From assembly GCF_022846255.1 (NCBI RefSeq), contig NZ_AP025682.1: a stretch of DNA of 64,000 nucleotides. One strand, written 5' to 3'. Below, piece after piece: positions 32,896-34,341 of the stretch. A program made the translations under genes and the position numbers. Each line of letters begins with the position of its first letter. Within the stretch, counting starts at the first letter, position 1. The DNA is from Escherichia coli (GTDB taxonomy: Bacteria; Pseudomonadota; Gammaproteobacteria; Enterobacterales; Enterobacteriaceae). The notes under the pieces were generated by a model that was given only the letters and a program-made list of their open reading frames with translations, was not told the origin of the DNA and ran no database searches.

Positions 32896-34341
32896 CTATT
32901 TTTTAGCATTCGCATCCAGCGGGGCGGCATAACAACTGTAAGAAAAACATTCGCTGGAATGATTGGCGATATCTTTAAAGTTGCTTTCAGCAACCCCCTC
33001 GAACATGAGTACCGTTCTGGATAACTCTCCGTTGTCATTTATATGTGGAAAATCAAATTGTGTACTGAATCGCCATACATCTGTCTTTTCTGGCTCGCTG
33101 TTCACAGAGATACGTCGATGGATGGCTCCTCCTGAAAACGTGCGCCAGAACAATTGTTGATCAAAATCTTGTAATATCGCACACTTGGATGCTATTTGAC
33201 GTAGTAAACCTGCATACCGTGGACTGCCATTACGAGCAACATTATGCAAACCCTGACTAAAAGCATCAAACAAACAATAGATATGATCACTAGTGAAAAA
33301 AGGTCTTAATTTTTTTTGTTCTTCATCGCTGTAATCCAGGAGCATCTCATTGATTTCTTCCGGTGAGAATTTTAAGACAAAATTATCCTCAGGATTTGTT
33401 TCTTTCTTGTTTTTTTCACTATTCTTCTCCTCAATGGTCTTCGCATTTTGTTTCGCAATTTTTTTCGCATTTTCTTCCTCAGTTTTTTTCGCAATTTTTT
33501 CCCGAGTTTTTGGTTTTAGACTAACACCATCGATGTCAACCGGTGTTGTTTTCAGATCTCTCTGCGCGTCTTTCAAATTTGTCTTATAGAGATCGGGCAC
33601 TTTATCGGCAGATAAGTATCCGGATGAAGAAATCTGGTGTGTACGCATGGGGGGCTGTTCACAAAGCATCGAGGCTATATCGTCTTTAAACTCTTTTACA
33701 TTAAAGTTATCGGCATTAACCTTCCCTGTTATAAACCCCGCATCGGCAATTTTCTTCTCTAATTGTTTTGTACGTTTAGAATAATAAGCGTTGTTATCAT
33801 AAAACTTTTCAAGAAGGGCCCACTCCTCAAGCTGCCTTATGTGATTTTTCAACTGTTGATGATCTATTTTATATTCATGTGTACTAGAATCATTTTGGTT
33901 GCAAGAGTTACAGATTTTTAAGCATAATTTTCCATCAGATTTATCATCTATGGTATCAGTGAAAATATAGGACACTTCAATATTCTGCCCGTTCTTATCA
34001 GTCATCTCATATGACCATTGCCCCGTTCGTTTCGCATTCTTAATGAGTTCGATGGACTCTGCAGGACAACCATGAAGAATGGGCAGAATTTTATCAGGAT
34101 GCTTAATGAGTAAAATCATTATATTTACAATATTTGAAAAGAAATCTTTGCTATTTTTTATTTCATCGATTTTTTCCGCTGAAATGTTTACTAAGTTTTC
34201 ATTTCCGGAAATGAAAAGCAATTTGCCATGGGGGCTTTTTTTAAATTGTTCTTCTGTTTTAGAAAAGACATCCTCTTTAAAAGGTGGCAACTCAGTACCA
34301 GTAATAAACGGTTTCAATAAATTCGAATTTGAAATTGTCAT
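32896..34341 (-). CDS. Hypothetical 481-aa protein on an AT-rich islet (unassigned; candidate horizontally acquired effector or defence protein)
   Basis: Uninterrupted 1446-nt ORF with ATG start and GGAG 7 nt upstream; nucleotide composition visibly AT-rich against the flanking core genes; not in the K-12 acpH-malZ interval as I remember it; Lys/Glu-rich repetitive centre; no Walker A, HExxH or other motif I can recognise. Confidence 0.8.
   Translation of the reverse strand: MTISNSNLLKPFITGTELPPFKEDVFSKTEEQFKKSPHGKLLFISGNENLVNISAEKIDEIKNSKDFFSNIVNIMILLIKHPDKILPILHGCPAESIELIKNAKRTGQWSYEMTDKNGQNIEVSYIFTDTIDDKSDGKLCLKICNSCNQNDSSTHEYKIDHQQLKNHIRQLEEWALLEKFYDNNAYYSKRTKQLEKKIADAGFITGKVNADNFNVKEFKDDIASMLCEQPPMRTHQISSSGYLSADKVPDLYKTNLKDAQRDLKTTPVDIDGVSLKPKTREKIAKKTEEENAKKIAKQNAKTIEEKNSEKNKKETNPEDNFVLKFSPEEINEMLLDYSDEEQKKLRPFFTSDHIYCLFDAFSQGLHNVARNGSPRYAGLLRQIASKCAILQDFDQQLFWRTFSGGAIHRRISVNSEPEKTDVWRFSTQFDFPHINDNGELSRTVLMFEGVAESNFKDIANHSSECFSYSCYAAPLDANAKK

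Follow-up and report, generated by a model that had tools for sequence, protein, structure and literature searches.

A 1.65-kb islet between acpH and malZ in the Escherichia coli chromosome contains an array of degenerate 12-nt tandem repeats that lies in codon register within the only open reading frame (ORF) of the islet, and the number of repeat units differs between strains in whole-unit steps that preserve the reading frame of intact alleles. The islet was analysed within a 64,000-nt stretch of contig NZ_AP025682.1 (RefSeq assembly GCF_022846255.1), referred to here as the window. The encoded protein, an orphan, occurs only in E. coli and Shigella, and its substitution pattern is close to neutral. 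The explanation that we favor, with a probability of roughly 0.7, is that slippage drives a frame-preserving polymorphism of the repeat, and that the repeat encodes a charged interdomain spacer, tolerant of changes in length, in a weakly constrained, lineage-restricted protein. The ORF and its parts are as follows.

32896 to 34341, minus strand: the 481-residue ORF, the only one of the islet, annotated everywhere in RefSeq as "hypothetical protein" and orthologous to ECs_0454 of O157:H7 Sakai.
33514 to 34341, minus strand: N-terminal part, residues 1–276, a putative domain suggested by its composition, by the absence of indels among 8 alleles, and by helices and four strands in a low-confidence AlphaFold2 model.
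33391 to 33513, minus strand: the spacer, residues 277–317 (41 residues), reading P-KTR-[EKIA KKTE EENA KKIA KQNA KTIE EKNS EKNK KETN]-P.
33442 to 33501, minus strand: the copy-number-variable core of the array, residues 281–300, made up of five units of 12 nt, each with TGCG or TGAG at its end.
33394 to 33441, minus strand: the degenerate 3′ units KTIE EKNS EKNK KETN, residues 301–316, whose number does not vary among the intact alleles compared.
32896 to 33390, minus strand: C-terminal part, residues 318–481 and the stop codon, a putative domain with low-confidence AlphaFold2 helices followed by a beta sheet.

A preliminary description of this DNA had noted a unit recurring at least four times on the plus strand, and the count holds. 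The pattern TTCGCAWTTT has exactly four matches in the entire window, at plus-strand positions 33440, 33452, 33464 and 33488 (spacing 12, 12 and 24 nt), all of them within 33440–33497; shuffled sequences contained a mean of 0.82 matches and reached four in 1 of 100 cases. With Tandem Repeats Finder the tract is described as an array of period 12 at 33440–33500 (5.1 copies, 77% matches) and, in overlapping descriptions, as arrays of period 24 and 48 at 33409–33511; nowhere else in the window does an array score 50 or more. On the coding (minus) strand the unit RAARAAAWTGCG encodes [E/K][K/E][I/N/T]A, and the tract reads in frame as GAAAAAATTGCG AAAAAAACTGAG GAAGAAAATGCG AAAAAAATTGCG AAACAAAATGCG AAGACCATTGAG GAGAAGAATAGT GAAAAAAACAAG AAAGAAACA, which translates by 12-nt unit to EKIA KKTE EENA KKIA KQNA KTIE EKNS EKNK KET. 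The low-complexity peptide quoted in the preliminary description, KIAKKTEEENAKKIAKQNAKTIEEKNSEKNKKE, corresponds to residues 282–314. Because the tract is AT-rich and strongly strand-skewed (AT skew about −0.5 at 33300–33600), one could imagine that the repeat acts as DNA or RNA and not by way of its encoded peptide, the units being bound, for instance, by a regulator or a nucleoid protein. However, the units are in codon register, changes between them conserve the pattern [E/K][K/E]x[A], the tract contains no promoter-like site, and Rfam has no match in the window, so that a nucleic acid-level role is the least likely of all the explanations considered here.

Variation in copy number was followed in the 120 best cluster representatives at 90% identity, from which the segment between the anchors VDIDGxSxK and xEDNFVLKF was cut. 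The resulting spacers are 28, 32, 36, 40, 44, 48 or 52 residues long, all multiples of 4, in proteins of 466 to 493 residues, and intact alleles carry 7 to 13 units. The length variation of slipped-strand type anticipated from the sequence is therefore real, and it takes the form of whole 12-nt duplications or fusions. In a unit-by-unit comparison of 9 alleles, the first unit, GAAAAAATTGCG, is perfectly duplicated in tandem in strains C4 and EcPF15, two units are fused into one chimeric unit in AR0013, and eco241 and KY204 have two extra units each. Gains and losses in these 9 alleles are confined to the 5′ units that end in TGCG or TGAG, while the four degenerate 3′ units are constant. Every gap in an alignment of 8 intact alleles falls inside the spacer, and spans of the islet locus in the E. 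coli genome collection differ by 12 or 24 nt. The preliminary description had named a constant copy number combined with a compact conserved fold as what would speak against a variable linker; copy number varies between strains.

Some of this variation separates alleles that are otherwise the same. Representatives with zero differences outside the spacer carry spacers of 44, 48 or 52 residues, and a second haplotype group has spacers of 36 and 40 residues; the events must therefore be recent and recur on short time scales. The tract length is uniform in all sampled O157:H7 genomes, and the rate of change is therefore modest or low. With a unit of 12 nt, and with all intact alleles differing by multiples of 12, the locus does not behave as a phase-variable contingency locus. 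Two frameshifted alleles are also altered in the tract: DSM 103246 has a 60-nt deletion there, and the tract of PE164 measures 176 nt, or 14.7 unit lengths, and is out of frame.

The degenerate units (RAARAAAWTGCG), each coding for four residues, are thus gained and lost whole, probably by replication slippage or by unequal recombination between adjacent units. They encode a highly charged, hydrophobic-poor segment that probably serves as a spacer between the 276-residue N-terminal part and the 164-residue C-terminal part. Since 12 nt is divisible by three and the segment would lie outside a packed fold, changes in its length would be tolerated and would drift.

The composition of the segment fits a spacer between two parts. 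Its charged fraction is 0.51, as compared with 0.25–0.28 in the flanking parts, and its hydrophobic fraction is 0.07, as compared with 0.31 in both of them; the flanking parts have the composition of ordinary globular proteins. This agrees with the earlier reading of a Lys/Glu-rich, low-complexity segment dividing the protein into parts of about 270 and 150 residues. In the window allele, Pro277 and Pro317 mark the two ends of the spacer, and there is no other Pro or Gly in it; Asn, Thr and Ser are frequent as well. Pairs of opposite charge at i/i+3 and i/i+4 number 15, against 9.5 ± 2.4 in shuffled versions, and on the Pace–Scholtz helix propensity scale (standard literature values) all five of the 21-residue windows that rank as most helix-favoring (lowest in penalty) across the protein fall within the spacer. 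These properties point toward a spacer that may be helical, of the ER/K type, or else disordered. If the spacer were fully helical, standard helix geometry implies that each unit would add approximately 0.6 nm and turn the C-terminal part by approximately 40 degrees. The AlphaFold2 model places residues 265–326 in coil at a predicted local distance difference test score (pLDDT) of 22–29, within a model that is unreliable as a whole (mean 35).

The same helix-favoring, Lys/Glu-rich composition could be taken to indicate a coiled-coil stalk of a secreted or surface-associated protein, an extended form of what the preliminary description had suggested. Its view of a low-complexity spacer of polymorphic length between two parts has stood, but neither the coiled coil nor the link to secretion or the cell surface has. 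The periodicity of hydrophobic residues and Ala in the spacer has a power of 0.64 at 4.0 residues, 0.09 at 3.5 and 0.07 at 7, and so, with a period of 4.0 rather than 3.5, no heptad signal and hydrophobic residues nearly lacking (7%), the spacer is, at the sequence level, not a coiled coil. Nor does the protein carry a hydrophobic N-terminal signal peptide (mean hydropathy of the first 25 residues, −0.08) or a predicted membrane helix (the highest 19-residue window scores 1.43, below the usual threshold of about 1.6), and export by the Sec or Tat systems or with a membrane anchor is thus not supported by the predictions. A secreted or surface-exposed coiled-coil stalk is accordingly very improbable.

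The host gene is real but weakly constrained, evolving almost neutrally and yet kept in most carriers. The open frame of 485 codons compares with a maximum of 179 codons in 1000 shuffles of the islet, and the probability of such a frame arising by chance in DNA of 36% GC is near 1e-16. Among 8 alleles there are at least 102 substitutions outside the spacer and no stop codon, for which the probability under neutrality is 0.026, and there is no indel outside the spacer. In a set of 26 diverse alleles, approximately 75% of positions do not vary, and variation among the representatives is lowest in residues 442–481. Nearly all sampled carriers have an intact, annotated copy. The gene has a good candidate ribosome-binding site, read from the sequence; a scan for promoters found no consensus promoter upstream of the gene.

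34349 to 34352, minus strand: Shine–Dalgarno-like GGAG, 7 nt upstream of the ATG at 34339–34341.

Constraint was gauged by the ratio of nonsynonymous to synonymous substitution rates (dN/dS) between the window and O157:H7 Sakai, gene by gene.

Islet gene: dN/dS 1.0–1.2, dS 0.03, dN 0.037.
malZ: dN/dS 0.05, dS 0.12, dN 0.0057.
acpH: dN/dS 0.01, dS 0.16, dN 0.0022.
queA: dN/dS 0.02, dS 0.13, dN 0.0025.
tgt: dN/dS 0.00, dS 0.06, dN 0.0000.
proY: dN/dS 0.00, dS 0.07, dN 0.0000.

For the gene as a whole, dN/dS ranges from 0.48 to 1.75 in the other allele pairs tested, and segregating sites number 35, 26 and 41 at codon positions 1, 2 and 3, respectively. The low dS of the islet gene relative to its neighbors (0.03 vs 0.06–0.16) may reflect AT-saturated synonymous sites, a younger coalescence, or recent spread by recombination.

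Inactivated copies occur in at least 4 of about 88 sampled carriers. PE164 has a frameshift within the tract, O145:H28 RM12581 and DSM 103246 are also frameshifted, and O55:H7 USDA5905 carries a deletion that takes away the end of malZ as well. The single-base insertions mapped in RM12581 and DSM 103246 each start directly 5′ of a run of seven A residues (A7) in the window allele, that of RM12581 at nt 925 of the gene before the run at 926–932 (codon 309, in the spacer), and that of DSM 103246 at nt 99 before the run at 100–106 (codon 33–34). These insertions may be real slippage or homopolymer sequencing errors. The homopolymer runs inside the ORF are the following.

33410–33416, 33459–33465, 33483–33489 and 34236–34242, coding strand: A7 runs.
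33310–33317, coding strand: an A8 run.

A dN/dS of about 1, near-equal variation at the three codon positions, the pseudogenised alleles, the failure to find homologs elsewhere, and the lack of a confident AlphaFold2 fold could all be explained if the ORF were a decaying or never-functional relic, in which case the repeat would be simply slippage-prone, AT-rich DNA with no linker role. However, a relic does not readily account for the length of the open frame, its integrity in almost all sampled carriers, the absence of stops and non-spacer indels among the alleles compared, the ribosome-binding site, or the conservation of residues 442–481 and of three-quarters of all positions. We therefore regard a relic as an improbable explanation.

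The protein belongs to no recognized family. NCBIfam has no match to it, PADLOC defence profiles give 0 families at E ≤ 1, and PHROGs gives one marginal match only, of unknown function (E = 0.006). Pfam yielded only two weak matches (E = 0.015 and 0.034), which run from the low-complexity spacer into the beginning of the C-terminal part, and neither the single sequence nor a profile matched a PDB entry with an E-value below 0.12. An exhaustive phmmer search of 1.84 billion representative proteins recovered the protein's own cluster and 19 fragments at 66–97% identity, and a single non-self match, P0139, a protein of 947 residues with three repeats that we take to be PKD-like (summed E, 9e-7). 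Each of these repeats aligns to residues 79–158 (33868–34105, minus strand) with 24–31% identity over 58–80 residues, in a region that overlaps the four beta strands of the low-confidence AlphaFold2 model. A PKD-like beta-sandwich domain was nevertheless rejected, as Pfam has no PKD match to the protein even at E ≤ 10 and the similarity to P0139 was judged to be probably a chance match summed over three repeats. No relative turned up when a peptide pattern was scanned against 100,044 species, each represented by one genome, and the homologs come from sources named as E. coli, Shigella dysenteriae, and one Escherichia sp. A tblastn search of phages gave no match, and the two matches labelled as plasmids are records of 4.9 Mb, evidently mislabelled chromosomes; the gene is absent from the phage and true plasmid collections. 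Literature searches by the locus tags and by the names of neighboring genes returned nothing relevant on the locus.

Within this otherwise fast-changing orphan, a group of residues in the N-terminal part stands out as invariant across the 26 diverse alleles, namely H90, C92, and C140-x3-C144-x2-C147, with four Cys and a His among them.

33901–33924 and 34066–34074, minus strand: His/Cys cluster, formed by C140-x3-C144-x2-C147 and H90-G-C92.

This cluster could be a metal-binding site. The CxxxCxxC arrangement had suggested a radical SAM enzyme, a candidate that was dropped since Pfam gives no such match. An assignment to the WxxxE effectors, suggested by W174-x3-E178, was also dropped, a five-residue motif alone not being significant.

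A gene of this kind, an AT-rich single-gene islet without homologs, has a profile typical of conflict genes, and the variation of the spacer could be adaptive. The protein would then be a translocated effector, an antigen, or a factor in phage defence or counter-defence, in which the spacer sets the distance or orientation of the domains and diversifying selection acts on its alleles. In keeping with this, dN/dS reaches about 1 or more over the whole gene and peaks in the spacer, against 0.00–0.05 in the neighbors, and the ORF has been maintained despite that ratio. By direct reading, Ser, Thr, Asn and Ile abound in residues 1–16 and acidic residues are missing, a composition presumably resembling that of type III secretion signals. 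However, neither PADLOC nor Pfam has a credible match to the protein, the one PHROG match is marginal, and the gene was not found on phages or true plasmids. Its distribution appears to be linked to lineage rather than to pathotype, with O157:H7, 042, SMS-3-5 and ST38 all carrying the gene; several carriers have frameshifts or deletions; and the near-even spread of segregating sites over codon positions fits relaxed constraint as well. Nothing positive backs adaptive spacing in a conflict protein, and we consider this explanation unlikely, although the least so among the alternatives. A more specific form of it is slightly less probable than either the general form or a relic: ECs_0454-type proteins would be lineage-restricted conflict factors of E. 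coli not described before, acting, for example, as translocated effectors or in interactions with phages. Selection on how far an N-terminal targeting domain stands from a conserved C-terminal domain with the activity would then account for the near-neutral or diversifying evolution and the length-variable charged spacer, and the invariant His/Cys cluster could bind a metal.

Several points weigh against drift in the length of an interdomain spacer, the reading that we favor. Slippage was never seen directly, and the O157:H7 genomes are monomorphic at the tract. In some allele pairs the dN/dS of the spacer is 1.6–2.75, which could represent positive selection rather than drift, although alignment of the repeats inflates the value. 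Near-neutral evolution and several pseudogenised alleles leave room for gene decay. Finally, no structural model supports the layout of two domains and a spacer. AlphaFold2 reached a pLDDT of 35 for the full protein (26 alleles) and 44 for the C-terminal part alone (9 alleles), and the two-domain layout is instead suggested by composition, conservation, and low-confidence secondary structure.

The islet occupies a well-defined position on the chromosome. On one side lie tgt (29746–30873, minus strand), queA (30928–31998, minus strand), and acpH, which is on the plus strand and ends at 32875; on the other side lie malZ (34527–36344, minus strand) and then proY.

32876 to 34526: the AT-rich single-gene islet, 1.65 kb between the convergent stop codons of acpH (ending at 32875) and malZ (stop at 34527–34529).

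GC content is 0.30–0.43 in the islet and 0.50–0.60 in the flanks, and in K-12, as in sampled non-carriers, the stop codons of acpH and malZ are 4 bp apart. A flank-to-flank query matched 5424 of 5426 complete E. coli genomes, and the islet is present in about 1126 of the 5426 (~21%), in this collection always on chromosome-sized records. All sampled non-carriers have the empty-site span of 804 bp, with no alternative cargo seen, and the locus thus appears to be strictly two-state, holding either the islet or the empty site. Carriers include O157:H7, O55:H7, O145:H28, 042, SMS-3-5, and sequence type 38 (ST38), which we take to belong to phylogroups D, E, and F. The islet also brings a potential RNA structure to the 3′ side of malZ.

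34447 to 34494, minus strand: hairpin with a 12-bp stem and a small internal stem, just 3′ of the malZ stop codon, within the islet and absent from K-12.

Predicted folding of the RNA of 34342–34530 (minus strand) gives this stem in the minimum-energy and also in the centroid structure (z = −2.7), and the hairpin is possibly the malZ terminator of islet-bearing strains. A different islet is found in O157:H7 Sakai, where 1.5 kb of DNA between pgpA and yajO holds a single gene encoding the effector-like protein EspY3. In the window, yajO (18388–19362), which is 99% identical to the Sakai gene, is separated from the ORF at 19416–19934 (taken as pgpA by position and size only) by a gap of only 53 nt (19363–19415), and the EspY3 islet is therefore absent.

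In-frame coding repeats in charged linkers are well known, and the repeat in the islet gene is a new and previously undescribed instance that leaves the current understanding of how such repeats behave unchanged. The polymorphism of 7 to 13 units is a possible minor typing marker for the lineages that carry the islet, such as O157:H7, 042, and SMS-3-5, and it puts natural length variants of a charged spacer at hand for study of the islet protein. More curious than the repeat is the orphan gene that hosts it, in which constraint is weaker than in the neighboring genes by approximately 20-fold or more, and which is a candidate for studies of the origin and decay of orphan genes in a very well sampled species.

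Several known systems share features with the islet repeat. Phase-variable contingency loci have polymerase slippage as a common source of variation; however, a 12-nt unit cannot switch a reading frame on and off, and the two single-base frameshifts in the islet gene adjoin A7 runs and may be sequencing errors. The type III effectors EspF and TccP/EspFU of enterohemorrhagic E. coli resemble the islet protein in their AT-rich acquired DNA, narrow range, fast evolution, and strain-variable copy number. Their repeats are proline-rich modules of approximately 47 residues, whereas the islet unit is four charged residues; moreover, many islet carriers lack the locus of enterocyte effacement (LEE) island, and the islet protein shows no evidence of secretion. 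Domain II of TolA and the spacers of TonB-type proteins are likewise long, charged, Lys/Ala/Glu-rich series of short degenerate repeats linking two domains, but TolA and TonB-type proteins have an inner-membrane anchor and reach across the periplasm, whereas the islet protein has no signal peptide or membrane helix and no sequence similarity to them. A possible parallel is the ER/K single alpha-helix (SAH), which the spacer resembles in being Glu/Lys-rich and poor in hydrophobic residues, in its i/i+3 and i/i+4 charge pairs and top-ranking helix propensity, and in being bounded by prolines. Classical SAH segments have a charged fraction higher than the 0.51 of the spacer, which also differs in its many Asn, Thr and Ser residues and its strict period of four. 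The in-frame coding repeats used in multilocus variable-number tandem-repeat analysis (MLVA) differ from the islet repeat in its slow change, to the point of being monomorphic in O157:H7, and in its presence in only ~21% of E. coli; like them, it has its units arranged head to tail, with a unit length divisible by three, and it is polymorphic between strains by whole units with the reading frame kept.

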